Position numbers and translations under genes: made by a program. A stretch of 64,000 nt of DNA from Bacteroidales bacterium (GTDB lineage: Bacteria; Bacteroidota; Bacteroidia; Bacteroidales; UBA12077): assembly GCA_013138975.1 (NCBI GenBank), contig WTBR01000035.1, positions 43,733 to 107,732 on the forward strand. Direction: 5' to 3'. This document shows, piece after piece, positions 18,894 through 35,439 of the stretch. Positions within the stretch are counted from its first letter, which is position 1. The number at the start of each line of letters is the position of its first letter. A model generated the notes under the pieces. It did not search any database and had not been told where the DNA came from. It worked only from the letters and a program-made list of their open reading frames with translations.

Positions 18894-18907
18894 TTGATGT
18901 ACATCAA
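18894..18907. promoter_or_regulatory. FNR-type box, perfect consensus
   Basis: TTGAT-gtac-ATCAA about 160 bp upstream of the heme lipoprotein gene. Confidence 0.75.
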
Positions 18908-19065
18908 TGCTAACTAAAATAATTATCAATAGTTTTTCTTGAAAGAAGTCAATTTATTCATTTTTCTTTGTAGCGGATATAAACATCTTTTTATCTTAAT
19001 ATCATTTATTCTTAATATTTAAAGTGAGAATGAATATTTTTTTTTTAAAACTAAACATTAATAAT

Positions 19066-20313
19066 ATGAAAAAAATGAATTTAATTAAGTTAACTGGCAT
19101 GCTTGCAATTGCAATTATGTTTTCGTTATCAAGTTGTAGTGACGATTCTACCGATGACAATGGTAATGACAATGGTACTCCGGATAATACAGTAACAAGT
19201 ACTTCTGAATTATTAGTTGAAAAATTTACTACTGCACCAAATTTAGATGGTGAAATTGACGCTATGTGGGGAGCAGCACAAAAATTAGTTGGAACAACTA
19301 CAGTACCTAGTTTAGGTGCAAGAATGACTTATCTTAATTCTGATGGTGAAGGTACAGAAGAAGATCTTGGTTTATTTGATCCTTATGCAGGAGAAGCTTA
19401 TGATTTTACATTACGTGCAGGATACACAGAAAGTGATATTTATTTCTTAATGGAATGGGCTGATGATAAAGATAGCAAAGACAGACAGTCTTGGTATTTT
19501 GATGCTACAGATAAACTTTGGAAAGGTGAGCACAAATATGCAAATGATTTAAATGATAAATTTTATGAAGATAAATTTGCATTTCTATTCCCAATTGGAG
19601 ATGTAACAGGATTTGATGCCGGATCTTGTTATTCAACTTGCCATGTTGCTACTTCTATTAATAATCCAAAAGATAAGCACACAAGACATTATCTTACTAC
19701 TGAAGGAGAAAAAATTGATATGTGGCACTGGAAACGTGTTAGAGGAACTTACTTAGGTCAAGTGGATGATCAAAAAATGGTTTATGACGATGCTACAGAA
19801 GGATCTTCTGCTAACGGAAGAGCTGGTGATGCAACAGGTAGTGGTGGATATTCAAATAACTCACAAACTCTTGCTATAACAGGAACAACTACAGAAGTTA
19901 GTGTTCCAATGTATATTATTCCTGAAGAAACTGAATATTATTGGATTGATGCTGACCAAATTACTAACGGTACAGCTAAATTAATTACTGCTGTTGATGC
20001 TGAAGGTGTACTTTCTTATGAAGGCGGTGGAACAATTGATCCTGCAGACGGTGGTTTTAACCAAGGAACAGGTACTAAACGTATTCCTAGTGTTACAACA
20101 AAAGCATTTACTGAAGGTAGAGGTGATATTATGATATCAGCTGTTCATAATGGTACTGGTTGGGTTACTGAATTCAGTCGTAAATTAGATACAATGGACG
20201 AAGACGATGTTGTATTTGATGTTACTGCAGAAATTCCATTTGGCTTAGCCATTTTTAACAATGCTGCAATTGCACATGCTATTAAAACAAATCTTGTTTT
20301 AACATTTGAATAA
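19066..20313 (+). CDS. Lipoprotein with EB_dh (ethylbenzene dehydrogenase gamma / DOMON-type heme) domain and CX3CH motif
   Basis: Likely start MKKMNL at 19066; lipobox LSSC then SDD; APNLDG, IYFLMEWAD, YEDKFA, CYSTCH, IDMWHWK, WVTEFSRKL. Confidence 0.85.
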   Translation: MKKMNLIKLTGMLAIAIMFSLSSCSDDSTDDNGNDNGTPDNTVTSTSELLVEKFTTAPNLDGEIDAMWGAAQKLVGTTTVPSLGARMTYLNSDGEGTEEDLGLFDPYAGEAYDFTLRAGYTESDIYFLMEWADDKDSKDRQSWYFDATDKLWKGEHKYANDLNDKFYEDKFAFLFPIGDVTGFDAGSCYSTCHVATSINNPKDKHTRHYLTTEGEKIDMWHWKRVRGTYLGQVDDQKMVYDDATEGSSANGRAGDATGSGGYSNNSQTLAITGTTTEVSVPMYIIPEETEYYWIDADQITNGTAKLITAVDAEGVLSYEGGGTIDPADGGFNQGTGTKRIPSVTTKAFTEGRGDIMISAVHNGTGWVTEFSRKLDTMDEDDVVFDVTAEIPFGLAIFNNAAIAHAIKTNLVLTFE

Positions 20314-20462: not shown

Positions 20463-21860
20463 ATGATTAGATTATTAAACAAGTTCGTTGAAAAATCATT
20501 CTTCCCTATTGTTTTTAAATATATCACAGGCGCCGTTTTTATTGCCTTACTAATTATTGGTTTTTCTGCAAACTCTTCCGATTCGGCGTTATTAAAATAT
20601 TTACGAAACTTTAATATTGCCAATCTTCTTGTTTGGTCGTATTGGTGGCCTATTATAATTATTAGTGCTGTATTTTTTGGTAGAATTTGGTGCATGGTTT
20701 GTCCTATTGAACTAGTAACATCATTTTTTGCAAAAATTGGATTCAAAAAAGAAAGACCTAAATGGATTAAATCCGGTTGGGCTATTACCATATTTTATAT
20801 CATTATATTATTTATCGGAATAAATGGTTTTGCTATACACCGAAATCCATTTGCAATGTCCATGTATTTGTTATCCATAACAATAGTCGCTGCATTTTCA
20901 GGCCTTATTTTTAAGAAAAATACATTCTGCCGATACATTTGCCCTGTTGGACATTTACTAGGCTTATATTCGCGTTTTTCTTTTCTAGGATGGAGAGTAA
21001 AAGATAAAGAAACATGTAAAACTTGTAAAGACTTATCATGTATTAGCAATGATTATTCATACAATCATAAGGCTAAAAGCTGCGGTGTAGATTTATATCC
21101 TGCCAATATTAAAGACAACTCTAAATGTATTTTATGTGGTGGTTGTAGAAAAACCTGCGGTAAGTATCAAACTGAAGAAAATCCAAATAGACCAAATCCC
21201 GGATTTACAAAAATAAATATTAGCGATAGAGTATTTAATCTTACAAAACTTTCATTGGCTGAATCCTTTTTTGTACTGATTGTTTCTGGTTTTGTGATAT
21301 ATGAGGTCTTTGTAGAATGGAAGATCAGTAAATCATTAATCATGTATCTTCCCAATTTAATTGGACAAGAATTTAATATTAGCAATCCATTTTTATTTGG
21401 TATTCAGAAATGTATTTTACTTTACTTTCTTTTACCTCTTTTAATCTGGTTTATTCCATTTATAGTTAATAAAAGAAAATCAAACTTAGGTTTTAAGGAA
21501 TATATGAAGCATGCTGCTATCATATTTATTCCTATTATGGCTGCGGCACATATAATTAAAGCATTATTAAAAATGACTTCGAGGATTCCATATTTTGAGC
21601 ATACATTCTCCGATGTATCCGGATTACAAAATACTCAACTGTTTTTAAATAATCAAATTGAACTATTAAGTGTACCTTCATTTATTAATAATACTGTTTC
21701 ATTAATAAACTTTGTTGTTATAGTAGCAGGTATCCTTCTTAGCTTTTTAGTTACCAAAAAATCTATTAAAGCTAATAATTTAAATAAAAATCTATACTTG
21801 ATTCCGATTATTTATGGTTCCACATTCTTAATAATGCTTGTTCTGTGGCAACTTTCCTAA
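20463..21860 (+). CDS. Polytopic membrane 4Fe-4S protein (NapH/MauN/CcoG-like)
   Basis: GRIWCMVCP and FCRYICPVG motifs, CKTCKDLSC, CILCGGCRKTC, many TM segments. Confidence 0.88.
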   Translation: MIRLLNKFVEKSFFPIVFKYITGAVFIALLIIGFSANSSDSALLKYLRNFNIANLLVWSYWWPIIIISAVFFGRIWCMVCPIELVTSFFAKIGFKKERPKWIKSGWAITIFYIIILFIGINGFAIHRNPFAMSMYLLSITIVAAFSGLIFKKNTFCRYICPVGHLLGLYSRFSFLGWRVKDKETCKTCKDLSCISNDYSYNHKAKSCGVDLYPANIKDNSKCILCGGCRKTCGKYQTEENPNRPNPGFTKINISDRVFNLTKLSLAESFFVLIVSGFVIYEVFVEWKISKSLIMYLPNLIGQEFNISNPFLFGIQKCILLYFLLPLLIWFIPFIVNKRKSNLGFKEYMKHAAIIFIPIMAAAHIIKALLKMTSRIPYFEHTFSDVSGLQNTQLFLNNQIELLSVPSFINNTVSLINFVVIVAGILLSFLVTKKSIKANNLNKNLYLIPIIYGSTFLIMLVLWQLS

Positions 21861-22012: not shown

Positions 22013-25000
22013 TTAAAATTTGCTCTTCTTATATTTCCAATATGCAAAAACAGATAAAGACACTATTAAGAAAATACTAACATAAACAAAATTAGGTACA
22101 GGAACAGGATCACCACCTGCATATGAATGTAATCCTGATAGGTAATAATTCACACCAAAATACGTCATTAAAACAGATGCAAATCCGAATAATGCCAATG
22201 CATTAAATGCAAAAAATCCTCTTAGTTCTTTAATCATTCCTGAGTGTGTTACAAATGCATACACAATTATAGTTATTAAAGACCAAGTTTCTTTTGGATC
22301 CCAGCCCCAATATCTTCCCCATGATTCATTAGCCCATATTGCACCTAAAAATGTACCTATGGTTAACAAATACAATCCAACGGTTAATGCTTTATAGTTT
22401 ATAACTGTAAGCTCTTCAATTGTGGATTGAATATTTGATTTATTTCTCTCATTAGACAATGAATAGAGAATTAATACAATCACTGCAATAATTGCGCCTA
22501 TTCCTAAAAAACCATAACTACTAATAATTACAGAAACATGCAGGGTTAACCAGTATGATTGCAGCACAGGAACCAAATTAGTAATTTGTGGATCCATAAA
22601 GCTAAAATGCGCAACCATTAAAGTAAATCCTCCTAAAACTGCTGCTGCTGCTAATACAAATGACGAACGCTTAGCAAAAATAAATCCGGCTAAAATTGTA
22701 ATCCATGAAATAAAAATCATTGATTCGTAGCCATTACTCATAGGTGCGTGCCCTGAAACATACCAACGAATTCCAAGACCTAAAGCATGGAATAAAAATC
22801 CTCCTACCAGAAGTCCTGTAAAGATTTTAATTGTAAGTTTCGATTTTTTATTTTGTGCTATTATATTATAAATCAAAATAAATAAAAGCAGTAAACCTAA
22901 AGTAGCATAAAACGGAAACAGCTTTTCGTAAATCGCTGATTTATAATAAAATACCTCTGCCTTAACTTTTTTCTTACTTGGTAGTTCATATTGGGCAAAA
23001 TTTCTTTGATAGTCATGAATTGACTTTATTACTTCATTGGCCTGTCCGTAGTTGCCTGAACTCGCTCCTACTTGTATTCCTTCGACAAACGAACTAATAA
23101 CATTCTTTAAGTATAATGAGTTTTCACTGTTTGAAACAAGATTATATGCTTCTTTAGGTGCATGCCACTTTAAAGACTGATCGCCAACAGGGAAAATCTT
23201 CATAAATTCACCCAAATAAATCATATAGCAAATATTTAATCTTTCATCGACCTTTATTATTTCTTTATCAAATTTATTTCTTGCACTGGCAGGTTTCGCA
23301 TATGCAGCATCAACAAATTGTTTTATTTTATATGCATTCGTTTGCATGTCAACAATATCGGTAAACGCAGCATAATTGCCACTAATTCCAACTATTTTTT
23401 TCACTTCATCATTAGATACTTTAATAACTGGTACTTGTTGCCAGTTTCCAAAATCCAAATACAAACCTAAAAATACTTGCATAGGTGAATACCCATCGTG
23501 TACAGTTTCTTTCGAAACTTTTCGCAGTATATCATTACTCAAAGTATAAAGCGGCTCTGTTCTTCCACTTTGATTCTGAACTAAAATCTTTCCGAATTCG
23601 TTTGCTAAAGATTTTTCAACTACCAGTTTTTGATTTTGAGAATTAGCAAAAAATGAAAAAGATAAAAACAAAATCAAGAAACTTGCTACTTTAACCGGCT
23701 TCGACTTAAAATAACTCTTTGTTACTTTTCTGAAAAGAGAATTTTTATTCATCATTGATAATATTATAAAGAAGAAAAGTAAAAAATATCCGATGTAGGT
23801 TACAATCATTCCTGCAAAATCTCTACTTACTGTTAATATTGTTCCAAGTTCATCCTTATGATATGATGATTGATAGAATCGCCATCCTTTATATTTTAAT
23901 ATATGATTCATATAAATAGAATAAGGCATATTTATACCCTCGCTTTCATCTATTAAAATTACATCACTTTTATAAGATGATGGACTACTTGAACCTGGAT
24001 ATCGGTCTAAAATAAAATCTTCAAGTTTCAAACTAAATGGCAATTCCATTTCTAAAGGATTATAACTTATTTCAACTAAGTGCTCTCCGTTGTCAAATAT
24101 TGCTTTGTTGTTATTTACTTGTCCACTCCATAAATATAACTCTGTAAATTTATTTCCATAGTTTAATTCAAAGACTAAAGCATTTTTATTTGTTTGTTTT
24201 GTGTTTTTATCTACACTCACTGCTTTTACAGTTCCTTTTGCAGTAATCACATCAGGAATTATTGAAATATCTTTTACTTTATATATTTTCATTCTTTCAA
24301 AAGATACTACCTCTCCTACTTCATGCTCGGTTTCTGTTTCCGACATCATACTTCTTTCGCTTATGGTATATCCTGATTGTATTTTATAAGCATCTCCTTC
24401 TAGAGTAATTCTAATATCAACAGAGTCTTTTTCAACAAAACCAATTAATACACCTCCAAATTTTTTGATTTCTCCTTCTGATAATATTATAGTATAACGC
24501 GTCAAACTGCCTTTAGAAACTAATAATGAAACTATGGGTTTTCCATTTTCAGAATCAACAACTACTTCATCAGCATTTGATAAATTTGTTTTATATTTTA
24601 ACTTGTAAACAACATTATCAATTTTAACTTTCTTGCTATATCTTTCTTTTTTAGTTGACGTGAAGGTCATCTTTTTTGCATTGGAAAAAAGTATTGATCC
24701 ATCTGTATTCTTTATGTCAAATTTCAAATAATTATCACGTGAAGCATATTCATTTTGAGTTGCACCTTCACGAATCTGAATTACACCTTCGAATCCAAAA
24801 TAACGTGTAATTCCAGCTCCTATTATCATTAATACAAAAGCTGAATGAAAGAGCAAAATAGTTAATTTCTTCCTTTTATATAATTTAAATTGAACTATTT
24901 GTCCTATTAAATTAACAATCATCAAAAGCATTAATAATTCAAACCATTTGGTATTGTATACCATTATCTTAGCAGCTATAGCTCCAAAATCATTTTCATA

Positions 25001-25096
25001 AAATGTTGCAAAAGCCATTGACATTGCGAATACAAAAAATAAAACTCCCATAAACCAGGGAGTAAATAGAAAAATACCGTTCTTCTTTTTCATCAT
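22013..25096 (-). CDS. ccsBA: System II cytochrome c synthase, CcsB-CcsA fusion
   Basis: WWD motif WANESWGRYWGWDPKETW, LQSYWLTLH, GLHSYA, ResB-like FYQSSY. Confidence 0.95.
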   Translation of the reverse strand: MMKKKNGIFLFTPWFMGVLFFVFAMSMAFATFYENDFGAIAAKIMVYNTKWFELLMLLMIVNLIGQIVQFKLYKRKKLTILLFHSAFVLMIIGAGITRYFGFEGVIQIREGATQNEYASRDNYLKFDIKNTDGSILFSNAKKMTFTSTKKERYSKKVKIDNVVYKLKYKTNLSNADEVVVDSENGKPIVSLLVSKGSLTRYTIILSEGEIKKFGGVLIGFVEKDSVDIRITLEGDAYKIQSGYTISERSMMSETETEHEVGEVVSFERMKIYKVKDISIIPDVITAKGTVKAVSVDKNTKQTNKNALVFELNYGNKFTELYLWSGQVNNNKAIFDNGEHLVEISYNPLEMELPFSLKLEDFILDRYPGSSSPSSYKSDVILIDESEGINMPYSIYMNHILKYKGWRFYQSSYHKDELGTILTVSRDFAGMIVTYIGYFLLFFFIILSMMNKNSLFRKVTKSYFKSKPVKVASFLILFLSFSFFANSQNQKLVVEKSLANEFGKILVQNQSGRTEPLYTLSNDILRKVSKETVHDGYSPMQVFLGLYLDFGNWQQVPVIKVSNDEVKKIVGISGNYAAFTDIVDMQTNAYKIKQFVDAAYAKPASARNKFDKEIIKVDERLNICYMIYLGEFMKIFPVGDQSLKWHAPKEAYNLVSNSENSLYLKNVISSFVEGIQVGASSGNYGQANEVIKSIHDYQRNFAQYELPSKKKVKAEVFYYKSAIYEKLFPFYATLGLLLLFILIYNIIAQNKKSKLTIKIFTGLLVGGFLFHALGLGIRWYVSGHAPMSNGYESMIFISWITILAGFIFAKRSSFVLAAAAVLGGFTLMVAHFSFMDPQITNLVPVLQSYWLTLHVSVIISSYGFLGIGAIIAVIVLILYSLSNERNKSNIQSTIEELTVINYKALTVGLYLLTIGTFLGAIWANESWGRYWGWDPKETWSLITIIVYAFVTHSGMIKELRGFFAFNALALFGFASVLMTYFGVNYYLSGLHSYAGGDPVPVPNFVYVSIFLIVSLSVFAYWKYKKSKF

Positions 25097-25115: not shown

Positions 25116-25808
25116 TTATCCCATTTTAGAAACCATAATAAGTTTCTCCTTATTAATAATTTTAATATTAGGGCATTTATCATCTATAATACTATCTTCA
25201 GAAAATTCTTTTAATATTCTAACAACACTTTCTTTTGCCATACCTGATAATTCACCTAATTCCTGTCTTGATAAAATCATCGTGAAATTATCTGAACCAT
25301 GAACTTCATCTGCTAAATATATTAATGTTTCAGCCAATCGACCATGCATTTTTTTCTGTGTATGACTTAAAAATTTATAAAATGTACCAAGAGCCTTTCT
25401 ACTTATATCCTGCAACCAACCTTCTGCAAATTTACTATTTTGACGCATAAGTTCTTTAAGTACATCCATTTTAACAAAACATGCAGACACATCGGTTAAG
25501 GCAGCAACTGAATAATGATGTCTTTCATCAACAAAAGTTCCCGGTCCAGCAATTAATTGCTTCGGTTTAGCTATCCCCACCATCATTCTTTTATTATCGA
25601 AGCCCTCAATATAAATTTTTGCCATTCCATTACTTAAAAATACAGCATTTGAAGTTGGTGATCCTTGCTTAAAAATTATCTCACCGGGCTTGAAATCGGT
25701 CTTAAATTTATTCAAATTTACAATTTCAAGTTCCTTTTCCGTTAAATTTTTAAGGTTCTCCCACTCCAAATCACACTCTTCACATAATTCTTTTTTGGTT
25801 CTATCCAT
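25116..25808 (-). CDS. Crp/Fnr-family transcriptional regulator
   Basis: cNMP-domain motif IIFKQG; HTH SRQELGELSGMAKESVVRIL; N-terminal CEEC. Confidence 0.93.
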   Translation of the reverse strand: MDRTKKELCEECDLEWENLKNLTEKELEIVNLNKFKTDFKPGEIIFKQGSPTSNAVFLSNGMAKIYIEGFDNKRMMVGIAKPKQLIAGPGTFVDERHHYSVAALTDVSACFVKMDVLKELMRQNSKFAEGWLQDISRKALGTFYKFLSHTQKKMHGRLAETLIYLADEVHGSDNFTMILSRQELGELSGMAKESVVRILKEFSEDSIIDDKCPNIKIINKEKLIMVSKMG

Positions 25809-25862
25809 TATATTTTTTTTAGGCGTGCAAAATACATAATAAGATATTCAAATCTTTTATTC

Positions 25863-25884
25863 CGTATTGATATATATCAATACG
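25863..25884. promoter_or_regulatory. Perfect 22-bp palindrome containing a consensus FNR box
   Basis: cgta-TTGAT-atat-ATCAA-tacg between the divergent regulator and hexaheme genes. Confidence 0.8.
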
Positions 25885-26027
25885 AAAATTGATGTTAAAT
25901 GTTCAACCCAATGATTATAATCAGTTGTTATTTGTGTAACAATCAATTGCCAAAAATAGCAAATAAAGACCTTTTATTCTTATTTTGTCTTTATAAATCA
26001 TAATTCACTTAAATTTAAAAAATAGCT

Positions 26028-27134
26028 ATGAAAAAAACAATTAAATTATTAAGTATTCTGTTCCTTTTTGGTGCAATATTTATGTCTTGCGAAGGACCAG
26101 CAGGAATTGACGGTGTTGATGGTGTTGATGGTATTATCGGTGAAGCTGGCGGTGATGGAACCGCTATTTGTATGACTTGCCATAATGCAGGAACTGTTTA
26201 TGCTGCAAAAGTAGATCAATTCAATGAAGGTGCTCACGCACTTGGAACATATTATTCTCGTGGTGAAGATTGTTCAGGATGTCACAGTACTGACGGATTT
26301 TTAGCACGTATGGATTTTACTTCTGCTGACGAAATCTTTGACTTAGACTTAACTGATCAATCAGCAATTAGCTGTAGAGCTTGCCACATTGTTCACACTA
26401 CTTATGATGAAACTGATTGGAATTTAACTTTTGCAGATCAAGTAACAGAAACAATTTTAGGTATTGATAATGCAGATGTTGCTTCGGGTGAATTTGAAGA
26501 TATGGGTGATGTAAATATGTGTGTACAGTGTCACCAATCACGTAATCCTATAGAAGTACCTAGTGCTACTTCTACAACTGATGTAAATATATCTCATTAT
26601 TGGGGACCTCATCACGGACCTCAGGGAAGTATATTAAATTCTCAAGGTGGAGTTGAAGTAGGTACCGGATACCCAACAACAGCATTCAATCCAACAACTT
26701 CATTCGCTCATGATTGTATTAATTGCCATATGCCGAATGGTAATCACAATTTAGCTTTAGATGAATCAACTTGTACTTCTTGCCATAGTGACATTACAGA
26801 TAAACTTGCTGCAATTCAAGATGAGGTTGAAGGTAAATTAACCGACTTAGGAAGAACATTAGCTGGATTAGGAGGTTTAGATCCTGATACTGAAACTGAA
26901 ACTGTATGGAACGAAACTTTAGGAGAACATGTAGAAACTACTGACACTGTAGGATACCATGCAATGGGCTCAGGTTATGGTGGATATGGAGACAATCCTG
27001 TTGCTGCAGACTTAGGAAGATGTGTATTTAATTATTTAATTATTGCTGAAGATCAGAGTATGGGAATTCATAACCCTGATTATATTATTACATTATTAGA
27101 TAACACAATTACATTAGCTGAAACATTAAAATAA
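26028..27134 (+). CDS. Hexaheme c-type cytochrome lipoprotein with collagen-like linker
   Basis: Lipobox FMSC; GXX repeats; CMTCH, CSGCH, CRACH, CVQCH, CINCH, CTSCH; GPHHGPQ and SMGIHNPDY. Confidence 0.9.
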   Translation: MKKTIKLLSILFLFGAIFMSCEGPAGIDGVDGVDGIIGEAGGDGTAICMTCHNAGTVYAAKVDQFNEGAHALGTYYSRGEDCSGCHSTDGFLARMDFTSADEIFDLDLTDQSAISCRACHIVHTTYDETDWNLTFADQVTETILGIDNADVASGEFEDMGDVNMCVQCHQSRNPIEVPSATSTTDVNISHYWGPHHGPQGSILNSQGGVEVGTGYPTTAFNPTTSFAHDCINCHMPNGNHNLALDESTCTSCHSDITDKLAAIQDEVEGKLTDLGRTLAGLGGLDPDTETETVWNETLGEHVETTDTVGYHAMGSGYGGYGDNPVAADLGRCVFNYLIIAEDQSMGIHNPDYIITLLDNTITLAETLK

Positions 27135-27153
27135 AAACATATTAAATTTTATT

Positions 27154-27192
27154 AAGGAGTTACTTTGTAAAACAAAGTAGCTCCTTTTTTTA
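27154..27192 (+). terminator. Rho-independent terminator
   Basis: aaggagttactttg-taaaa-caaagtagctcctt plus T run. Confidence 0.85.
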
Positions 27193-27253
27193 TAAAAAAT
27201 AAAACGCATTTTTTTTAGAAGAATCGATTTAAAATAGAATACCTACTCTATAA

Positions 27254-27267
27254 TTGATTAAAATCAT
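27254..27267. promoter_or_regulatory. FNR-type box (9/10 match)
   Basis: TTGAT-taaa-ATCAT upstream of the lipoprotein/DUF5777 pair. Confidence 0.55.
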
Positions 27268-27402
27268 AATTAAAACAGTAACACGTCATATAAAAAAGTG
27301 ATATTAAATAACTACATTGTTTTAACATAGAAAAACATTAATATTGTTCAAGATGTCGTTCAAAAAAAAATTAACTTCATAAAAAAATAAAGGATATATA
27401 AG

Positions 27403-27765
27403 ATGAAAAAAAGTTTATTATTTATTTTAGGATTACTTTTATTCATATTTACATCATGTGAATATAAAATTATTGAACCTATAATTGTTGAGTTACCTGA
27501 CGAACCAGTTATTTTCTCTGAGCAAGTAGAACCTTTCCTTTTCGATAAATGTGGTTCATCTTGTCATTCTTCACAAAGTCCTATTTTAACGATAGGTAAT
27601 GCCTATGACAATTTAATTGAAGGCGGTTACATTAATACAGACAATCCTCCAGCAAGTGAAGTATATATTAAAGTTAATTCTGGTCATCATAGCAGCAACC
27701 CATTAAGTCCTGAAGAAATGGCTTATCTTCTTAAATGGATAGAAGAAGGTGCAATTGAAAACTAA
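27403..27765 (+). CDS. Small monoheme cytochrome c lipoprotein (atypical CX3CH)
   Basis: Lipobox FTSC; FSEQVEP..KCGSSCH; C-terminal LLKWIEEGA. Confidence 0.8.
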   Translation: MKKSLLFILGLLLFIFTSCEYKIIEPIIVELPDEPVIFSEQVEPFLFDKCGSSCHSSQSPILTIGNAYDNLIEGGYINTDNPPASEVYIKVNSGHHSSNPLSPEEMAYLLKWIEEGAIEN

Positions 27766-27800
27766 TTAAATAAAGGTATTATAAATAAATATTAAAAATC

Positions 27801-28667
27801 ATGAAGAAATTCGCTTATACAATTATCATCACAATGTTATTTGCTTTAACCAGTAGTTTAACATTTGCACAGGAAGAAACTGTAAAAAAAGTAGAAAAAC
27901 CGGTTTACGAACCTTTTCAAGCATCTACTTTAATTGAAAGTCAAACTGTTATAGGTTCTAACGCAAAACAATTAGAACTAATTATACATCACCGATTTGG
28001 TGGTACGGATAATGGTTTCACCGATTTATTTGGAATTTATGCTGCTTCAAATATTCGAATGGGATTACAGTACGGAATAACCGACAAATTAACAATTGGA
28101 ATTGGAACAGAGAAAGCGAACAAATTCAGTGACTTAAATGCTAAATATGTAATTATACAGCAAACCAGATCGGGAAGCATACCAGTATCAGTATCTGCAC
28201 ATGCTAATATTACACTGGATAGCAGAGAAGAGCAATTTTTTGGTGATAATTATGAGTATGTAGATCGTTTCTCATATTTTGCGCAAGTAATTGCTTCACG
28301 AAAATTTACAGATGCCTTATCAATTCAAATTGCACCGGGTTATGCGCATTTCAACTCTGTTGACAGTGTTTTTCAAAACAATAAAGGAGCAGTAATGATT
28401 GGTGGTAGATATAAATTTACAGAAACTATGTCTGCTATTGCTGAATATCATCTACCTATAAATATCAATCCTGCGCGAGATTATCATAGTGATATTGAAT
28501 CGGGATTAGCTTTTGGATTAGAAATAAGTACACCTACACATGCATTCCAGGTTTTTGCTACAAATTACCAAGGAATTATGGCTCAAAAGAATTATGTTAT
28601 GAATACTAATAAATTTGATAGTGAAGGGATATTAATAGGTTTTAATATTACTGTTAGATTTAATTAA
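27801..28667 (+). CDS. Outer-membrane beta-barrel protein, DUF5777-like
   Basis: Signal peptide TFA|Q; IHHRFG, LFGIY, YGITD, HAFQVFATN, terminal IGFNITVRF strand. Confidence 0.8.
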   Translation: MKKFAYTIIITMLFALTSSLTFAQEETVKKVEKPVYEPFQASTLIESQTVIGSNAKQLELIIHHRFGGTDNGFTDLFGIYAASNIRMGLQYGITDKLTIGIGTEKANKFSDLNAKYVIIQQTRSGSIPVSVSAHANITLDSREEQFFGDNYEYVDRFSYFAQVIASRKFTDALSIQIAPGYAHFNSVDSVFQNNKGAVMIGGRYKFTETMSAIAEYHLPININPARDYHSDIESGLAFGLEISTPTHAFQVFATNYQGIMAQKNYVMNTNKFDSEGILIGFNITVRFN

Positions 28668-28689
28668 AAGCACTCAGATTTAAAAATAT

Positions 28690-28724
28690 AAAAGCATCGG
28701 GATTTATACCTCGATGCTTTTTTT
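28690..28724 (+). terminator. Rho-independent terminator
   Basis: aaaagcatcg-g...c-tcgatgcttttttt. Confidence 0.8.
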
Positions 28725-29052
28725 ATGGTAAATTTTATTGAGTTAACGAACAATTATTTCAATAATATTTTATTAACGTGAATTCGACATAAGAATATGC
28801 TTTAATAATTTCAAAATCAATTCTACCTAAGTTATCTTAGTTCTAATTTACAACATTAATATTTGTTTGATTAACTCTGTCATTCTCGCCTGCCAAAGCC
28901 AAAGCACATTATTACAATCACTAATCGTTATTAGCTAGTATTCATTTCAATTTTCCCTGTTGAATATATTGGACTTTAACAGTACAAAAAGTAATTCTTA
29001 GTAACTACGCAGATATATTATAATATTAATATATAGCTATTTGAAAAATTAA

Positions 29053-29156
29053 TTTCACGCAAAGCACGCTAAGAAAAAAATATGCAAAGACCGCATTTAA
29101 CACAAAATAAGCTTTTTGCGATCTTTGCGAAAAACTTTGCGACTTTTGCGAGAAAT
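29053..29156. repeat. CGCAAAG/CTTTGCG REP-like cluster
   Basis: cgcaaag-like units on the left and four tttgcga units on the right form an imperfect inverted repeat. Confidence 0.65.
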
Positions 29157-29380
29157 ATAAAGTACTAATATTTTATCTGTTAGTTTTAAATAGTGTGCCT
29201 GAATTAGTTACAATTCTTTTCTATTCTCCAAAGTTTTTACTCAACTTCTAACTATATCTTGTTTTGAAATAAACTCTTTCAACAATTTACTTTATGTGAC
29301 TATTGTTAATTAAAGAAAAATCCTTTATAAATTGATGCAATTTAATTTAATAAATTCACATTGATTATTGTATATACTAA

Positions 29381-29418
29381 AAGGACTTACTAAAACAATT
29401 ATGTTTTAATAAGTCCTT
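29381..29418 (-). terminator. Hairpin terminator after the 19-heme gene
   Basis: aaggacttactaaaaca-atta-tgttttaataagtcctt. Confidence 0.75.
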
Positions 29419-29444
29419 CATTCAATATATCAAATTAAAAGATA

Positions 29445-32222
29445 TTACCCTGCTAACAATGAATATATAATTAGTATTACCAAGGTTATTCCAATTCCCA
29501 AGAAAAAGAATCCAGCTGCTTTTACCATATTCAATTTCCATTTTGTAATTTCTTTTTCAACTATAACTTTTTCTAAACGGCCTGAATCTACGAGCTCTTT
29601 ATATTCTTTTGGTCTATCTTTTTTAAACTCATCTAAAGGAGTAAGTCCTGTAAAAATAACTGTATCCATCGGGAATGCTTCAGGACGGAAGTGAGTATGA
29701 AAAAAGTGAACTGTAAAAATAAAACCTGTTGCCAATAAAGCTTCATCACTATGTATAATCTGCACTACATTAATAACCCAACCAGGTAATGCCCTTGAGA
29801 AAAATTCAGGAAACCATAGCATTAATCCAGAAAATCCAATAACGGCTACTCCCCAGAATACAGCCATGTAGTCAAATTTCTCCCAATAAGTCCATCTTCC
29901 GTAATTTGGTTTTGTCCCTTTTCCTATAAACCATTTTAAAGTTGCCCCTAAATCTCTCCAGTCCTGCATATTAAACATTAACGAATTACTACCAAAAACA
30001 AATTGTCTGAATGATTTTTTTCGTTCGATCATTTGTTTAATCAAGGAATACAAGTGAAATCCAAAATAACCAAAAGTTATTAAAGCACCAAACCTGTGAA
30101 TCATACTGGCGTTATAAACACCTCCAAGCGCATTGGTAATAAATTGAGCCCACTCCATATGAGCAAATTTTATTATCATTCCGGTTAATGCCAGAAGTAT
30201 AAAACTAATTATTACAAAAATATGTGTGATTCTTTGACTATATGAAAACCGTCTTACATATTTTACTTTTCCTTCAGGTCTAACATGCTTATTCTTTCTC
30301 AACTCAATTATTGACCTTGGAATCCATAAAAGGGTATGAAATCCGTAAAATCCAAATACTCCTACTAATAAAAATGTCATTGCCCAAAAAGCATAATATA
30401 ATGCCGGATATTTATTTTTATCATTATGTGTTGCATGTGTTAAATATCCTGTAAATCTCTCGTTTGCATCAGGATGACATTTTTGACATGTAGCAACAAT
30501 ATTATGAATCCCAACTTCCGAATCAGGATTATTTACACTTAAGATATTATGAGCACCATGGCAATCGGAACATCTTGCTGTTTTTAAGTAACCTAACAGG
30601 TATGCTTTTCCGTGATATGTCTCTAAATATGTTTCTGATAAATGCTCATGACAAGAACCACACTGATGTGTTATCTCTATCATAAACTCATCCTGATCTA
30701 TTCTTGAAATCATATGAGCGGAATGACAGTTGCCACAAGTTGGTAATTCTTTATCGCTTTCATTTTCAAACGAATGTATACTTCCTAAATATTCATCAGC
30801 TATTGGTTTATGACATTTTGCACAGGTTGAAACAAGATGTTGTGGATTAACTGATGAATTTTCATCAGATTCTTTTAACATATTATGCGTTGTATGACAA
30901 TCGGTACAAACAGCCGTTATGGTTAATCCCTTTTCCTCCAAGCTTTTACCATGTACACTTGATGAATAATCAAAATAAGCATCAACTTCTTTTAATCCTT
31001 TCCCCTCAATTGCTTTATTATCTTTTGAATGACATTTACCGCATAAATTAGGAATAGCAGTTCTATATGTTGGCGCTGTTTCATCGTATCTTGATTTTAC
31101 TTTATGGCTACCATGACAATCGGTACAATAAGGTGCATTTTCATCTTTTCTAAAATATGCCTGTCCATGTCCACTGGTAAAATATTTATTTGATACTTCT
31201 GCGTGGCAATTATCGCAATCAACTTCTTTTGCTGTTTCGCAAGGTCGTTCCAAAAAAGGTGAAACATCCGTATGACATTTTACACATGTAATTTTTTTAT
31301 GCTCATAATCATCTAAATCAGCTCTTTCAACTTTTAATGAAATTTTTTCTCCATCTACTACTTTATGAACACCATCCTTGCTATGACATTTTAAACAAGC
31401 ATTATCTGACATAGTAGCTTTAATATTCTTTACATTAATCTTATGAGGTGGATGACAATCGGTACAAGCTGGTATTGCGCCTGGAGCCTCTTCCCACAAT
31501 TCACCTTTGATAACCTTAACATGAACATCTTCAATTCTTGCATGACATTTCATACAAGTTTTTGCAACATTGTTTGCAGAAATACTTGAATTTGGGTTAT
31601 TATGTGGCAGTACTAAATGATTTCCATGGCAATTATTACAGGTTGCTGTAACTATTAATCCACTATTAAATAATCCTTGTCCATGAATACTCTGGCTATA
31701 ATTATCTAATATATTATGCTCGGTAATATTATATGCACGCGATACAGGAGCTCCCTCTTTATGACATTTTCCGCACAAAAACGGAATATTCATTTTATAA
31801 GTTAAAGATTTAGGATCCGTGGTAGGTAAAATTGTATGCTCTCCATGGCATTCTGTGCAAGTAGGTGCATATAGTTCATTTAATTTTAGCGCTTGACCGT
31901 GTATTCCTTTGTAGAAATTATCATCTGCCTTTGTATGGCAATCACCACAATTAACATTATTTAAATTTTCATTATGAGGAAAATCATCAACAGCAGCATC
32001 TTTATGACATGAAGCACATGAAACAGAATTATGTACAGATTTTATGATAATTCGTCCATCAACATACATTGACCTTCCATCGATTTCAGATACCAATTCA
32101 GTATCTTCATGGCACATAAAACAGTCTTCATCAGATTGGCTATATGTTAATGATATTTGCAAAAAAAATATAATTAAAAATAAATAATTTCTTTTTCCTG
32201 CAACAAGCTTTTCGAAAATCAT
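29445..32222 (-). CDS. CbcL-like fusion: 19-heme c-type domain plus FdnI/HydC-type cytochrome b
   Basis: Signal peptide TYS|Q; 19 CxxCH counted; RFSYSQRITH, LALTG, YGRWTYWEKFDY, IIHSDEALLA, VHFF. Confidence 0.92.
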   Translation of the reverse strand: MIFEKLVAGKRNYLFLIIFFLQISLTYSQSDEDCFMCHEDTELVSEIDGRSMYVDGRIIIKSVHNSVSCASCHKDAAVDDFPHNENLNNVNCGDCHTKADDNFYKGIHGQALKLNELYAPTCTECHGEHTILPTTDPKSLTYKMNIPFLCGKCHKEGAPVSRAYNITEHNILDNYSQSIHGQGLFNSGLIVTATCNNCHGNHLVLPHNNPNSSISANNVAKTCMKCHARIEDVHVKVIKGELWEEAPGAIPACTDCHPPHKINVKNIKATMSDNACLKCHSKDGVHKVVDGEKISLKVERADLDDYEHKKITCVKCHTDVSPFLERPCETAKEVDCDNCHAEVSNKYFTSGHGQAYFRKDENAPYCTDCHGSHKVKSRYDETAPTYRTAIPNLCGKCHSKDNKAIEGKGLKEVDAYFDYSSSVHGKSLEEKGLTITAVCTDCHTTHNMLKESDENSSVNPQHLVSTCAKCHKPIADEYLGSIHSFENESDKELPTCGNCHSAHMISRIDQDEFMIEITHQCGSCHEHLSETYLETYHGKAYLLGYLKTARCSDCHGAHNILSVNNPDSEVGIHNIVATCQKCHPDANERFTGYLTHATHNDKNKYPALYYAFWAMTFLLVGVFGFYGFHTLLWIPRSIIELRKNKHVRPEGKVKYVRRFSYSQRITHIFVIISFILLALTGMIIKFAHMEWAQFITNALGGVYNASMIHRFGALITFGYFGFHLYSLIKQMIERKKSFRQFVFGSNSLMFNMQDWRDLGATLKWFIGKGTKPNYGRWTYWEKFDYMAVFWGVAVIGFSGLMLWFPEFFSRALPGWVINVVQIIHSDEALLATGFIFTVHFFHTHFRPEAFPMDTVIFTGLTPLDEFKKDRPKEYKELVDSGRLEKVIVEKEITKWKLNMVKAAGFFFLGIGITLVILIIYSLLAG

Positions 32223-32385: not shown

Positions 32386-32399
32386 TTGATATACATCAT
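32386..32399. promoter_or_regulatory. FNR-type box (9/10 match) in divergent promoter region
   Basis: TTGAT-atac-ATCAT between the cbcL-like and cbcA-like genes. Confidence 0.6.
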
Positions 32400-32605: not shown

Positions 32606-33532
32606 ATGAAAATTGCCTTACCTATTAAGTTTGTAATTATTTGTTCGTTTCTTTTTTTAATTCATCAAATTGTTCAAGCACAGGACAATGAAGAAAAAAT
32701 TAAAATGCCCGAATCAAATAATGTATGTCTCAATTGCCATGGGCATAAATATTTCTCATTCTATAATGAAAATACAGAAATAAATGAACGCAAATTAATG
32801 AATCCTTACTTTGTTATTGATTCAATTAGTTATCTTCAGGGAGCACATCAAGGACATTCCTGCATAGATTGCCATTCTGAGGATTATGGAGTTTATCCTC
32901 ATATAGCTGAATTAAAAATTGAACCAAAACTTACTTGTGTGGATTGCCATGATTTTGAGGCAATTGCAACTGAAGTAAAAAAGAGCGTTCATATGGAAGC
33001 GTTTGGTGAGTTTTTTCAATGTGAATTATGTCATGATCCTCATTCAAATAAATTAGTGAAATCTGATATGGCAGAGTTAGTTAGATATAATAATAACAGA
33101 TGTCTAAATTGTCATAATGATGTGGATAAATATCAAGTTTTTACTTCGCATGAAAATCCACAATTACTTGTTACGCACGATTGGTTGCCAAATCAGGCCT
33201 TACACTTTGCACATGTTCGCTGTATTGAATGTCATACAGCTGTAACAGACACTGCTGATGCTGTACACCATATTGTTCCAAAAGAACAAGCAGTAAAGAA
33301 TTGCAACGAATGTCATTCAGAAAATTCATTGTTACGCGACAAGCTTTATAAACATCAATTAAAAGAAGATCGTTCGGAATTTAACTTTTATAAGTCATTT
33401 ATTATTAATGACGCATATATAATAGGCGCAAATAAAAATTATTATGTTAATTTAATTAGCTTATTAATATTTGGTCTTACATTTTTTGGAATATTAACAC
33501 ATACAATTTTTAGAATTATTAAACGTAAATAA
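32606..33532 (+). CDS. Heptaheme cytochrome c with C-terminal membrane anchor (CbcA-like)
   Basis: Signal peptide VQA|Q; 7 CxxCH; HDWLPNQALH; C-terminal TM with His (GILTH). Confidence 0.9.
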   Translation: MKIALPIKFVIICSFLFLIHQIVQAQDNEEKIKMPESNNVCLNCHGHKYFSFYNENTEINERKLMNPYFVIDSISYLQGAHQGHSCIDCHSEDYGVYPHIAELKIEPKLTCVDCHDFEAIATEVKKSVHMEAFGEFFQCELCHDPHSNKLVKSDMAELVRYNNNRCLNCHNDVDKYQVFTSHENPQLLVTHDWLPNQALHFAHVRCIECHTAVTDTADAVHHIVPKEQAVKNCNECHSENSLLRDKLYKHQLKEDRSEFNFYKSFIINDAYIIGANKNYYVNLISLLIFGLTFFGILTHTIFRIIKRK

Positions 33533-33533
33533 A

Positions 33534-34151
33534 ATGAGCAACACTAAATTATATCTTTATCCAGTTTGGCTAAGAATATGGCATGCAATAAATGCCTTAT
33601 GTATAATACTTTTAGGTATTACAGGTATTAGTATGCAATATACAAATATAGAGTCACCATTGATTAATTTTAATTCTGCTGTATCTATCCATAATCTTGT
33701 TGGTGTAATTATAATAGCAAGTTATTTATTCTTTTTCATTGCTGGTATTATATCAGGTAATGTTAAACACTACAGGCTTCTTTTTAAAGGTTTATTAAAC
33801 CGATTATTTAAACAAGGAGAATATTATCTTTTTGGATATCTAAAAGGAGAGCCTAAACCATTTCATATTACAAAAGAGGAAAAGTTTAATCCTTTACAGA
33901 AAGTTTCTTACGTTGCTGCAATGTATGTTTTAGTTCCTGCGGTTATAATTACTGGAGTTGCATTATTATTTCCTGAAATGATTATAGAAAAGTTTTATAC
34001 TATGAGTGGAATTAGATTAACTACATTCTTCCATTCACTTGCCGGATTTTTCATACTAATTTTTCTAATTATTCATTTATACGTAATTACGATTGGGAAA
34101 CATCCATTAAAAAACTTTAAAAGTATTGTTAACGGTTATCATGAATCTTAA
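33534..34151 (+). CDS. Four-TM di-heme cytochrome b (CbcB/PhsC-like)
   Basis: RIWHAINA, SIHNLVG, KFNPLQK, FFHSL, IIHLY; starts 1 bp after the heptaheme gene. Confidence 0.92.
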   Translation: MSNTKLYLYPVWLRIWHAINALCIILLGITGISMQYTNIESPLINFNSAVSIHNLVGVIIIASYLFFFIAGIISGNVKHYRLLFKGLLNRLFKQGEYYLFGYLKGEPKPFHITKEEKFNPLQKVSYVAAMYVLVPAVIITGVALLFPEMIIEKFYTMSGIRLTTFFHSLAGFFILIFLIIHLYVITIGKHPLKNFKSIVNGYHES

Positions 34152-34298: not shown

Positions 34299-34814
34299 AT
34301 GAATGTAAAAAAATTATTATTAATTGTTTGTTCTGTATTTCTTGTAGTTAGCATGTCGAAAGCACAAGATTATGAGTACATTGGCGCTGCAAAATGTAAA
34401 ATGTGTCATAATAAAGAAGTTAAAGGTAAACAATACGACATTTGGAAAACTAAAGATCATGCAAAAGCAATGGAGTCTTTGGCAACTGACGAAGCAAAAA
34501 AATATTCAGATGATCCTCAAAATGATCCTAAATGTTTAAAGTGTCATTCAACTTATCATGTAGCTGCTAGTGCTGATTTAAACCTTACTATTAAAGCTGA
34601 TGAAGGTGTTTCATGTGAGTCTTGCCACGGACCAGGAAGTAAGTATAAATCAATGTCTATTATGAAAGATCACCAAGGCAGTTTAGATAATGGTATGATT
34701 GTACCTACAGAAGCTGTTTGTAAAACTTGCCATAACGAAGAGAGTCCTACTTATAAAGAATTTAATTATGCTGAAGCATTAAAGATGATTTCTCATCCAA
34801 ATCCTGCTAAATAA
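34299..34814 (+). CDS. Periplasmic tetraheme cytochrome (c554-like family)
   Basis: Signal peptide SKA|Q; YIGAAKCKMCH, CLKCH, GVSCESCHGPGS, CKTCH. Confidence 0.9.
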   Translation: MNVKKLLLIVCSVFLVVSMSKAQDYEYIGAAKCKMCHNKEVKGKQYDIWKTKDHAKAMESLATDEAKKYSDDPQNDPKCLKCHSTYHVAASADLNLTIKADEGVSCESCHGPGSKYKSMSIMKDHQGSLDNGMIVPTEAVCKTCHNEESPTYKEFNYAEALKMISHPNPAK

Positions 34815-35058: not shown

Positions 35059-35439
35059 TTACTTCAACATTACAAGTAAACTTCCTGTAATATAGGCTAC
35101 AACCCACCATAAATAAGCAAATAAAGTATATCTATGTAACTTCTTTGGCACTTCAGTTCCTAAACCGTTTTTAGTATAAAACTTCCAAATTAATACAACA
35201 TCAATCAACATTGCAGCCAAGGCTGAATATCCCAAAAATCCATGAATTGTGAACGGAGAATTTGTTGATCCAATTATCATACAAATTGTAGCAGTAATAT
35301 CAAGTATGACACCAACAGTTATGAATAATAAAACAGCTTTTACAAGTTTATGTTTACGCTGCTCGGTAATTACACCAATTGAATAAGAAATTAAAGCTAG
35401 TGTCACCACTGTAGCTCCAATAATTGAAATAGTTTTCAT
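35059..35439 (-). CDS. Four-TM membrane protein, HsmA/TIGR03987-like (putative heme binding)
   Basis: TLALISYSIGV..E, LDITAT, HGFLG, LHRYT..W pattern. Confidence 0.65.
   Translation of the reverse strand: MKTISIIGATVVTLALISYSIGVITEQRKHKLVKAVLLFITVGVILDITATICMIIGSTNSPFTIHGFLGYSALAAMLIDVVLIWKFYTKNGLGTEVPKKLHRYTLFAYLWWVVAYITGSLLVMLK

Follow-up and report, generated by a model that had tools for sequence, protein, structure and literature searches.

Do a hexahaem lipoprotein, a monohaem lipoprotein and an outer-membrane beta-barrel of the family DUF5777, encoded side by side, form a new kind of porin-cytochrome unit, and what would such a unit do? The question is raised by positions 26028 to 28667 of a 64,000-nucleotide stretch of DNA (the window) from a Bacteroidales bacterium (lineage UBA12077, assembly GCA_013138975.1), which is part of contig C57 of its genome. 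The first gene (26028..27134, + strand) encodes a hexahaem lipoprotein of 368 amino acids (aa) with six CxxCH motifs. The second (27403..27765, +) encodes a lipoprotein of 120 aa, here called sCYT, which appears class-I-like and has a single haem motif, CGSSCH, of the CX3CH form. The third (27801..28667, +) begins after a gap of 35 nucleotides (nt) and encodes a DUF5777 outer-membrane barrel of 288 aa (PF19089, E 2e-71) with 12 strands in its predicted model. An earlier note on this DNA had read these as three co-oriented envelope genes, and both the strand and the gene ends proved to be exactly right.

The same note had proposed all three genes as a possible porin-cytochrome unit. The sCYT-barrel pair stood up to comparison across the phylum; the hexahaem lipoprotein as a fixed member did not. 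What is conserved is not the three-gene set but the monohaem lipoprotein with the barrel, in most cases separated by a YceI-like gene; the hexahaem gene accompanies this pair in a single clade of the barrel family only. In our estimate the chances are evenly balanced that the docked sCYT-barrel pair ends an outer-membrane electron chain, in which a small partner would reach the haem by way of the barrel. The three genes of the window are probably the outer-membrane-proximal part of a chain switched on by a Crp/Fnr-family regulator, with anoxia as the probable trigger.

Pairing of the sCYT and barrel genes

Among 401 genomes of the phylum that were at least 90% complete, the barrel gene was present in 166 and sCYT, the commoner of the two, in 265. 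Where DUF5777 is lacking, sCYT is found alone or in other company. Since sCYT extends beyond the barrel-bearing genomes, the dependence is one-way, of the barrel on sCYT. Gene neighbourhoods were compared at 80 barrel loci, taken from one genome per genus, hand-chosen from the 150 best-scoring places, with all listed places of the chosen genomes included. An sCYT homologue was located on the same strand within three genes of the barrel at 68 of the 80 loci, within two genes at 59 and directly adjacent at 19. The background beyond three genes was 5 sCYT genes out of 412, or 11 out of 412 when any such haem motif was counted. A genomic link between DUF5777 and cytochromes, which the earlier note had named as a check on its proposal, is borne out by these counts.

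The usual order of the cassette is sCYT, a gene of about 182 aa and the barrel; the middle gene was YceI-like in three examples (PF04264, 3.9e-08 to 2.4e-18). In a set of 41 close relatives the barrel was found in 21 genomes, and at most of these loci it was closely preceded by a gene for a 119-141-aa lipoprotein bearing a single C(x2-4)CH motif. The genome that contains the window has exactly two DUF5777 genes and two strong sCYT genes, each sCYT gene directly upstream of a barrel gene. A single-protein scan with the barrel gave four loci, two of which were new.

Could the barrel be an ordinary small porin or structural protein whose adjacency to sCYT is incidental? Its generic 12-stranded outer-membrane fold, in which no cofactor motif is evident, would agree with such a role. 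The frequency of sCYT at barrel loci relative to the background genes argues against it, as does the fact that both paralogous pairs of the one genome show the pairing. The pairing also holds over a barrel tree of 105 rows with deep branches (a quick maximum-likelihood tree made with IQ-TREE, leaving out L002, which is identical to the window, L018, L022, L028, L030, L122 and open reading frames (ORFs) outside 260-380 aa). An incidental neighbourhood is, on these grounds, very improbable.

The paralogous pair is located on contig C175 (L001 183-3736) in a copper-protein cassette, which encodes a plastocyanin-like protein with a type IX secretion tail, sCYT (CSVCH), the barrel, a YceI-like protein and, last, a protein with two-component regulator propeller repeats. 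An ORF of 606 aa at L031:4857-6677 (its frame is listed as 607 aa) consists of two tandem full-length DUF5777 barrels. In the genus relatives L012-L015 and L023, which carry a third barrel sub-group, sCYT is replaced by an upstream lipoprotein of 256-275 aa that matches Laminin_G_3 (concanavalin-like) and has no haem motif, and a YceI-sized gene is located downstream. Tandem sCYT genes, both with CxxCH, precede the barrel gene at L132 (6912-7298 and 7612-7965; 79% barrel identity).

The DUF5777 barrel

The barrel matched PF19089 at 240.6 bits, against a gathering cut-off of 23.1, over profile positions 1-247 of 247. Neither the barrel nor the hexahaem lipoprotein nor sCYT was matched by any NCBIfam family, and no paper on DUF5777 was found in the literature searched, which excludes subscription journals and supplements. 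The 12-stranded model has a predicted local distance difference test score (pLDDT) of 94.0 and a predicted template modelling score (pTM) of 0.85. The nearest solved structures are KdgM (Z 17.9, root-mean-square deviation 2.0 over 167 residues), FapF (17.8), the COG4313 channel, which serves in the uptake of hydrophobic molecules (17.0), and NanC (16.5), all of them 12-stranded. Autotransporter barrels also matched (EstA 16.3, AIDA-I 15.8, NalP 15.1, BrkA 14.4 and Hbp 14.2), as did LpxR (15.5), and a Foldseek search with the model returned the same kinds of match with template modelling (TM) scores of about 0.5. As modelled, the fold does not separate a solute porin from a peptide translocator.

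Five columns (H64, G78, H247, F249 and G280) are invariant in an alignment of 90 barrel sequences. Judged by the alternation of hydrophobicity, both invariant histidines fall in the hydrophobic register and presumably face the lipid: H64 in strand 1, close to its outer end, and H247 where strand 11 begins on the periplasmic side. The two histidines were considered as a shared lumenal haem or metal site, which appears unlikely given this register and their position at opposite ends of the barrel wall.

The earlier note had predicted, from the length of the protein, a mechanism different from that of MtrB, and the 12 strands of the model agree with it. If the locus encoded an MtrB-type conduit, the barrel would sheathe a cytochrome and a chain of haems would cross the outer membrane. 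As in MtrCAB of Shewanella and in MtoAB/PioAB, the barrel gene adjoins genes for c-type cytochrome lipoproteins and clusters with quinone-side cytochromes, and electron transfer at or across the outer membrane is supposed in both cases; moreover, the hexahaem lipoprotein gave a sub-threshold match to the MtrC/MtrF domain II/IV family (23.4 bits, cut-off 30). The barrels of those systems have 26 strands, however, and even the porin of Cyc2 is predicted to have 16 (from part of PMC8406198). A cytochrome domain such as that modelled for Cyc2, of about 20 x 20 x 10 Å in the same part of that paper, is too big for a 12-stranded barrel. Mtr-type partners have about ten haems, whereas the invariable partner here has a single one and the hexahaem protein is linked in one clade only. 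There is no sequence relationship to the Mtr-type barrels either, and Pfam gives DUF5777 alone. The barrel cannot enclose a cytochrome because 12 strands are too narrow; a role as a sheath is impossible here and an MtrB-type conduit extremely unlikely. The size of the barrel would force a mechanism unlike that of a sheathed haem wire, which is of interest to membrane bioenergetics.

The monohaem lipoprotein

The signal peptide of sCYT ends in a lipobox (...FTSC), and CGSSCH is its only haem motif. The three nearest database homologues, P0121-P0123 (96, 87 and 75% identity), have kept the same motif, so that the CX3CH form is genuine and no sequencing error; the next homologue (69%) has CVSCH. 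Among the nearest sCYT genes in the 80 loci, 44 carry CxxCH and 27 carry Cx4CH. C19, C50, C54, H55 and W112 do not vary among the 73 rows of the family alignment; the lipobox Cys, the haem motif and, close to the C-terminus, a Trp are kept throughout. Past the lipobox Cys, an extended linker rich in Pro and acidic residues follows.

PF13442 gave a weak match in 9 of 12 sCYT members, and the sCYT of the window is without any Pfam match. A search of PDB with the family profile returned cytochrome c555 (2.4e-09), FoxE (4.9e-09), the ACIII monohaem domain and cytochrome c6 (about 1e-05). By family profile, sCYT is similar to solved class I c-type cytochromes. In most members the residues MP offer a possible Met ligand. 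They are GHH or GHP in the subgroup of the window, which may have a different axial ligand and potential.

The lipobox and extended linker, present in all 73 rows, suggest a further role for the barrel, namely that of a translocator or anchor which carries sCYT, or its N-terminal linker of about 30 residues, across the outer membrane so that the haem domain is displayed at the surface. Surface-exposed lipoproteins are common in Bacteroidota, the barrel gene is strictly adjacent to or near its lipoprotein gene, and FapF, EstA, AIDA-I, NalP, BrkA and Hbp are protein-conducting 12-stranded matches of the model. The solute porins KdgM and NanC match equally well, however, so the fold does not discriminate. 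The export signal of Bacteroidota lipoproteins is an acidic pattern, and acidic residues were counted at +2 to +6 past the Cys. None was found in 13, one in 39 and two in only 21 of the 73 sCYT rows, which is no clear fit to the export signal; the 84 hexahaem rows had none in 9, one in 61 and two in 14. A surface haem with no cofactor inside the membrane, about 3-4 nm thick, would also leave no electron path across. Translocation of sCYT by the barrel therefore seems quite unlikely to us.

Predicted complex and comparison with Cyc2

Binding between sCYT and the barrel was likely beforehand because of the gene pairing. Prediction of the complex, which bears on the suggestion of the earlier note that DUF5777 scaffolds or exports cytochromes, gave a score of 0.45, compared with 0.00 for the best of three controls; for binding this is classed as weak support. 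Three runs agreed in at least 89% of the contacts, and the pLDDT of the partner was at least 80. Of 157 solved complexes, 116 reach the mark applied to such predictions, as do 2 of 215 mismatched pairs; just 18 of the 157 solved complexes, but both passing mismatches, reach it at 0.60 or less. With the custom alignments used here these calibration counts are only roughly valid.

In the reading that we prefer, sCYT and the barrel would be a dedicated pair, probably binding each other. The barrel would dock sCYT at one mouth and admit a small diffusible partner to the haem. Candidates for this partner are metal ions or chelates in solution and other redox carriers that are small or soluble in lipid.

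A comparable arrangement is that of Cyc2, the fused monohaem iron oxidase, which likewise combines one haem with one small barrel at the outer membrane. Its barrel is also too narrow for a protein, so that a dissolved substrate would come to the haem, and its cytochrome domain is thought to plug the mouth (as given in part of PMC8406198). Unlike the present pair, which is encoded by separate genes for 120 and 288 aa, Cyc2 is described there as a single polypeptide of at least 365 aa, with 16 predicted strands in place of 12 and with a motif AXPXFAR[Q/K][T/Y] before the haem motif. This motif is absent from sCYT, which reads ...VEPFLFDKCGSSCH. The DUF5777 alignment was compared by hhalign with one Cyc2-like protein (L115; no authentic Cyc2 was included) and gave a probability of 0.3%, and the hhalign comparison of sCYT with the cytochrome part of the same protein revealed nothing shared beyond the haem motif. 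A homologous 'split Cyc2' was dropped for lack of any relationship to this protein in hhalign, and the term would apply by analogy only. No homologue that fuses cytochrome and barrel turned up in the range 505-2000 aa; fusions near 400 aa were not a specific target of the search. The locus would work most like a porin-cytochrome or Cyc2-type module, yet it departs from both in strand number, fusion, motif and homology.

Two genomes without DUF5777 encode proteins of 390 and 397 aa (L111:1772-2944 and L115:3144-4337) with a Cyc2-like fused cytochrome-porin architecture. Both have an N-terminal ...P(R/K)FA(S/T)R...CxxCH, which is a partial Cyc2 motif, a beta-rich body and an aromatic end. They have no Pfam or NCBIfam match and are directly followed by two to three genes of the sCYT family.

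The hexahaem lipoprotein

The signal peptide of the hexahaem protein ends in a lipobox (...FMSC), and its haem motifs are CMTCH, CSGCH, CRACH, CVQCH, CINCH and CTSCH. A collagen-like stalk after the lipid anchor, as previously noted, was confirmed and consists of eight G-x-x triplets from G23 to G44, starting two residues past the lipobox Cys. Homologues number 315, all unnamed or 'hypothetical' and some with Pfam Collagen repeats; their source labels are Bacteroidota, Chlorobi, Latescibacteria and Gemmatimonadota. The six haem motifs and five further histidines (H70, H123, H195, H240 and H348) are invariant across 87 of the homologues.

A sequence-only search of PDB gave 6qvm as the best match with an E-value of just 0.012, and a comparison of folds was needed for this reason. 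In the model (pLDDT 87.1) a haem-binding core is combined with three long helices in the C-terminal part (residues 256-280, 327-342 and 350-366) and an inserted beta-hairpin. This model matched 6qvm, the S-layer undecahaem cytochrome of Carboxydothermus ferrireducens (Z 13.9, 24% identity, 239 residues), OcwA of Thermincola potens, 6i5b (Z 13.5, 22% identity, 232 residues), and NrfA, 6v0a (Z 12.5), the top three matches covering 225-239 residues. Further NrfA structures followed (12.0 and 11.8), with octahaem nitrite reductase, MccA and HAO among the lower matches, and Foldseek returned E-values of 3.4e-05 and 3.8e-05. On the basis of this model, the hexahaem protein shares the NrfA/OcwA-family fold of a haem core and a C-terminal helix bundle. 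This is in line with the NrfA-like fold suggested before, as is the absence of the catalytic CxxCK of NrfA nitrite reductase proper, all six motifs being CxxCH. The suggested helical C-terminus was also found, but GIHNPDY does not form its very end, being residues 346-352, ahead of the last helix.

In part of PMC6703420, OcwA is described as a terminal reductase of the cell surface, built from a globular haem domain and a bundle of three C-terminal helices. The same source gives it as a relative of NrfA without CxxCK that can reduce nitrite and hydroxylamine too. OcwA resembles the hexahaem protein in its long C-terminal helices, its inserted beta-hairpin and the lack of CxxCK. The haem numbers differ, being nine in OcwA, eleven in 6qvm and five in NrfA against six here. 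OcwA and 6qvm come from Gram-positive metal reducers, while the hexahaem protein is a Gram-negative lipoprotein on a collagen-like stalk.

The clade with multihaem neighbours

The barrel of the window belongs to a clade of 17 rows with a stem length of 1.02 and a support of 100 in the Shimodaira-Hasegawa-like approximate likelihood ratio test (SH-aLRT). In all 17 rows sCYT directly precedes the barrel, without an intervening YceI-like gene. A gene with at least three haem motifs was located within three genes in 12 of the 17 rows and in none of the 88 other rows of the tree; these counts are lower bounds, the genus loci having flanks of just 1.5 kb. Since none of the 88 other rows has a multihaem neighbour, the sCYT-barrel pair is not in itself a conduit for metal respiration.

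Upstream of the hexahaem gene of the window, an exported protein of 429 aa with an ethylbenzene-dehydrogenase-type haem-binding domain (EB_dh, PF09459, E 6.5e-31) and one C(x2-4)CH motif is encoded at 19024..20313 (+). It is followed at 20463..21860 (+) by a membrane protein of 465 aa with Fer4_5 iron-sulfur domains in two stretches (PF12801, E 1.1e-08), which possibly acts on the quinol side and may resemble NapH. The gene at 22013..25096 (-) encodes CcsBA, the fused ResB-CcsB cytochrome c maturation protein, of 1027 aa (Cytochrom_C_asm 1.2e-44; ResB 4.1e-22; NCBIfam TIGR03144 at 1.4e-58, over its cut-off). A Crp/Fnr-family regulator of 230 aa (25116..25808, -; cNMP_binding 1.7e-14; HTH_Crp_2 7.7e-13) is divergent from the hexahaem gene.

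Downstream of the barrel, the gene at 29445..32222 (-) encodes a CbcL-like fusion of 925 aa, with a domain of 19 CxxCH motifs and a C-terminal b-type cytochrome membrane domain (Pfam Ni_hydr_CYTB, 7e-09 over residues 590-744, plus several multihaem families). CbcL of Geobacter sulfurreducens has a nine-haem c domain with a dihaem b membrane domain and is an inner-membrane quinone oxidoreductase for extracellular acceptors (from part of PMC9129911). The 925-aa protein, likened to it by Pfam families only, has the same architecture with 19 CxxCH motifs in place of nine. A heptahaem cytochrome of 308 aa with a C-terminal hydrophobic stretch in its translation (32606..33532, +), a cytochrome b561-type membrane protein of 205 aa (PF01292; 33534..34151, +; Ni_hydr_CYTB, E 2.6e-24) and a tetrahaem cytochrome c554-like protein of 171 aa (34299..34814, +; Cytochrome_C554, E 1.9e-17) complete the island. 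The b561-type (PF01292) domains of the window are those of the 33534-34151 protein and of the 925-aa protein.

Eleven relatives belonging to the same taxonomic order (L123-L133) were compared with wider flanks. A hexahaem homologue was present in all eleven and directly upstream of sCYT in nine. A divergent gene for 229-254 aa occupies the position of the Crp/Fnr gene in 10 of the 11, as judged by size and place, and a gene for 1021-1047 aa occupies that of CcsBA in L123, L126-L129, L132 and L133. Three forms were distinguished downstream. In the first, carried by the window, L128, L129, L132 and L133, a divergent gene for the 19-haem/cytochrome b fusion (925-943 aa; 928-943 aa with 19 motifs in the relatives) is followed by the heptahaem, b561 and tetrahaem genes. 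The second, in L123, L126 and L127, has genes for an iron-sulfur protein with a twin-arginine translocation (Tat) signal and an NrfD-like membrane protein (Pfam assignments made on the L016 copies). The third, in L124, L125, L130 and L131, has the heptahaem gene directly downstream, with a b561-sized gene next in L124, L125 and L130; the DNA of L131 ends at the heptahaem gene. From the three forms it follows that every version couples the pair to a quinone-side membrane module and further cytochromes. No separate catalytic subunit was recognisable among the domains scanned in the island and its relatives.

In other families of the class (L066, L072, L077 and L090) the pair occurs with a Tat-signal protein of 308-327 aa and a membrane protein of like kind of 435-439 aa. 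A gene for a one-haem protein of 411-463 aa closely precedes that of sCYT in L066, L072 and L090, in the place of EB_dh as judged by size and haem count.

Regulation and transcription

Perfect TTGAT-N4-ATCAA palindromes occur only twice in the 64-kb window. One (18894..18907) is located upstream of the EB_dh gene. The other, TTGATatatATCAA / TTGATATATATCAA (25867..25880), is a perfect Crp/Fnr-type box between the divergent Crp/Fnr and hexahaem genes. Ten relatives were examined for this second site, nine of them with a hexahaem gene there; the box, 144-161 nt ahead of the hexahaem start (161 in the window), shows no mismatch in the window itself or in 5 of the 10 relatives (L123, L127, L129, L124 and L130), and a single one in each of L126 and L128. 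A regulator gene of the Crp/Fnr family together with a conserved site at the hexahaem promoter would place the locus in a Crp/Fnr regulon. FNR-type regulators carry an N-terminal Cys cluster for an oxygen-sensing iron-sulfur centre; in the regulator of the window, residues 9 and 12 are the only Cys of the N-terminal part, and its relatives start ...CNAPCCVNCE....

The sCYT-barrel pair had been credited with an FNR-type box of its own. The box in question, TTGATtaaaATCAt / TTGATTAAAATCAT (27254..27267), is weak, has one mismatch and is located 149 nt before the sCYT gene; a second weak one-mismatch box was found between the 925-aa and heptahaem genes (32386..32399). Such boxes are at chance level in the AT-rich window (14 found, 11.2 expected, 14 being reached in 24 of 100 shuffles). 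No box was found in the hexahaem-sCYT spacer of five genus relatives, which is 73-84 nt long and mainly a conserved hairpin. Since the spacers of these relatives consist mainly of a hairpin and hold no box, read-through from the hexahaem promoter is the simplest account of how the pair is transcribed there. The spacer of the window is 268 nt long and may or may not add a promoter for the pair.

A terminator between the hexahaem gene and the pair was correctly predicted. This hairpin (27154..27186, +) has a stem of 15 bp with a T run behind it, and all five genus relatives examined (L123, L126-L129) have retained it. Another terminator-like hairpin ends the sCYT-barrel unit (28690..28721, +), and the region 25700-29500 has six such sites where 1.3 would be expected.

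Contigs from RNA libraries of relatives (90-99% alike) covered parts of the hexahaem gene in three runs from three studies. One run had contigs over 27564-27910, which spans the sCYT-barrel junction, and over 27990-28523. RNA libraries can hold DNA, and this cover is a hint of expression only, with depths that cannot rank genes. With no RNA contig on 27114-27264 and slight cover of 27265-27566, the contigs are uninformative on the transcript end.

The proposed electron path

A path through the envelope can be proposed from these genes. Electrons of the quinone pool would leave through the CbcL-like 19-haem/cytochrome b fusion, through the heptahaem cytochrome with the b561-type protein, or through both; in some relatives an NrfC/NrfD-like pair would take the quinone-side role. 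Periplasmic multihaem cytochromes would relay them to the hexahaem and sCYT lipoproteins at the outer membrane, where the hexahaem protein may present an OcwA/NrfA-type head carried on its collagen-like stalk. Which proteins bind, how they are placed in the envelope, which way electrons flow and what substrate they serve are all points that we infer.

Several observations weigh against a respiratory chain that ends in the docked pair. At 12 of the 80 loci no same-strand sCYT was found within three genes (one of them, L073, has a divergent sCYT next door), and 69 lower-scoring DUF5777 matches fall outside the sample. The sCYT-barrel family is known from sequences and models, and the predicted complex argues only weakly for binding. 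Many conserved charged residues line the barrel lumen, which may be closed. The pair is widespread, the barrel alone being found in 166 of 401 genomes, and elsewhere it is accompanied by YceI-like, cupredoxin and sensor genes rather than respiratory ones; its core function may not be respiration. With its occurrence in 265 of 401 genomes, sCYT can work without the barrel. Acidic-residue counts past the Cys place neither lipoprotein on a particular side of the membrane, and the hexahaem protein could be a periplasmic enzyme for a soluble substrate, by analogy with OcwA, which itself reduces nitrite and hydroxylamine.

The cassette order of sCYT, YceI-like gene and barrel that prevails outside the clade of the window suggests envelope redox maintenance as another function. 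The cassette would exchange electrons one at a time with an isoprenoid quinone or with an oxidised lipid of the outer membrane, as in systems of a YceI-type lipocalin with cytochrome b561, and the copy in the window would be a version fed by the multihaem and b561 proteins. One of the top structural matches of the barrel is the COG4313 channel, and b561-type domains are present in the window. The YceI-like domain X158 binds polyisoprenoids including ubiquinone-8 and co-occurs with cytochrome c domains in Cbp2D (part of PMC8981238), and the lipocalin BcnA guards the envelope against lipid peroxyl radicals together with the cytochrome b561 LcoA (part of PMC9113575). The family-wide cassette is like these systems in coupling a YceI-like protein with a small c-type cytochrome, and the b561-type genes of the window add to the likeness. 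A dedicated outer-membrane barrel, in contrast, does not figure in the parts of the two papers drawn on here (PMC9113575; PMC8981238). No YceI-like gene is present beside the pair of the window or in its clade, where sCYT adjoins the barrel in every row; the paralogous pair on C175 has one. An anaerobic, multihaem-rich island under Crp/Fnr control is not suggestive of a defence against oxygen radicals, and the barrel has no demonstrated lipid-binding site. Redox maintenance of the envelope is in our opinion unlikely to be the function of the pair. No paper joining YceI, cytochrome c and a beta-barrel in flavobacteria was found in the literature searched.

Returning to the chain that ends in the docked pair, a wider form of it is possible but doubtful. 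In this form sCYT and DUF5777 would be a phylum-wide minimal redox module, a 'split cytochrome-porin', which in the clade of the window serves as the outlet of a complete extracellular chain. Its parts would be unrelated to Cyc2 or Mtr, with one haem docked on a 12-stranded barrel through which a small redox partner is admitted. The full chain would run from the CbcL-like fusion or NrfCD to the OcwA-like hexahaem protein on its collagen stalk and on to sCYT and the barrel.

Genomes are screened for extracellular electron transfer and for iron cycling by way of Mtr/Pcc-type conduits and Cyc2. Bacteroidota are abundant in anoxic sediments and are seldom credited with either process, and no relevant paper on their extracellular electron transfer through multihaem cytochrome lipoproteins was found in our search. 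In the clusters of one barrel clade, every other part of a trans-envelope chain is present. If the 'split cytochrome-porin' is real, marine-sediment Bacteroidales would possess a metal- or electrode-respiring route that is invisible to current marker-gene screens. If the pair is a working redox module, DUF5777 would gain a function in the 166 of 401 sampled genomes that carry it, and sediment Bacteroidales a testable route to external acceptors or donors.

Source genome and further genes

The genome assembly comprises 6.8 Mb in 221 contigs and is 97.8% complete; the G+C content of the window is about 30%. Sequencing runs with near-identical DNA are labelled as sediment or marine sediment metagenomes. 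Twenty ORFs of the genome have at least three CxxCH motifs, with a maximum of 30 in one ORF. Further multihaem clusters are located on contig C68 (23493-46894), with ORFs of 13, 9, 20 and 30 CxxCH motifs, and on contig C185 (12111-15436), with ORFs of 21 and 20.

Two small genes flank the island. The first (window 17978-18385) encodes 135 aa starting MARDYYCPICKGQLRV, with one C..CH motif, and recurs beside the island in L126 and L128. The second (window 35059-35439) encodes a hydrophobic-looking protein of 126 aa and recurs beside the island in L123, L128, L132 and L133.

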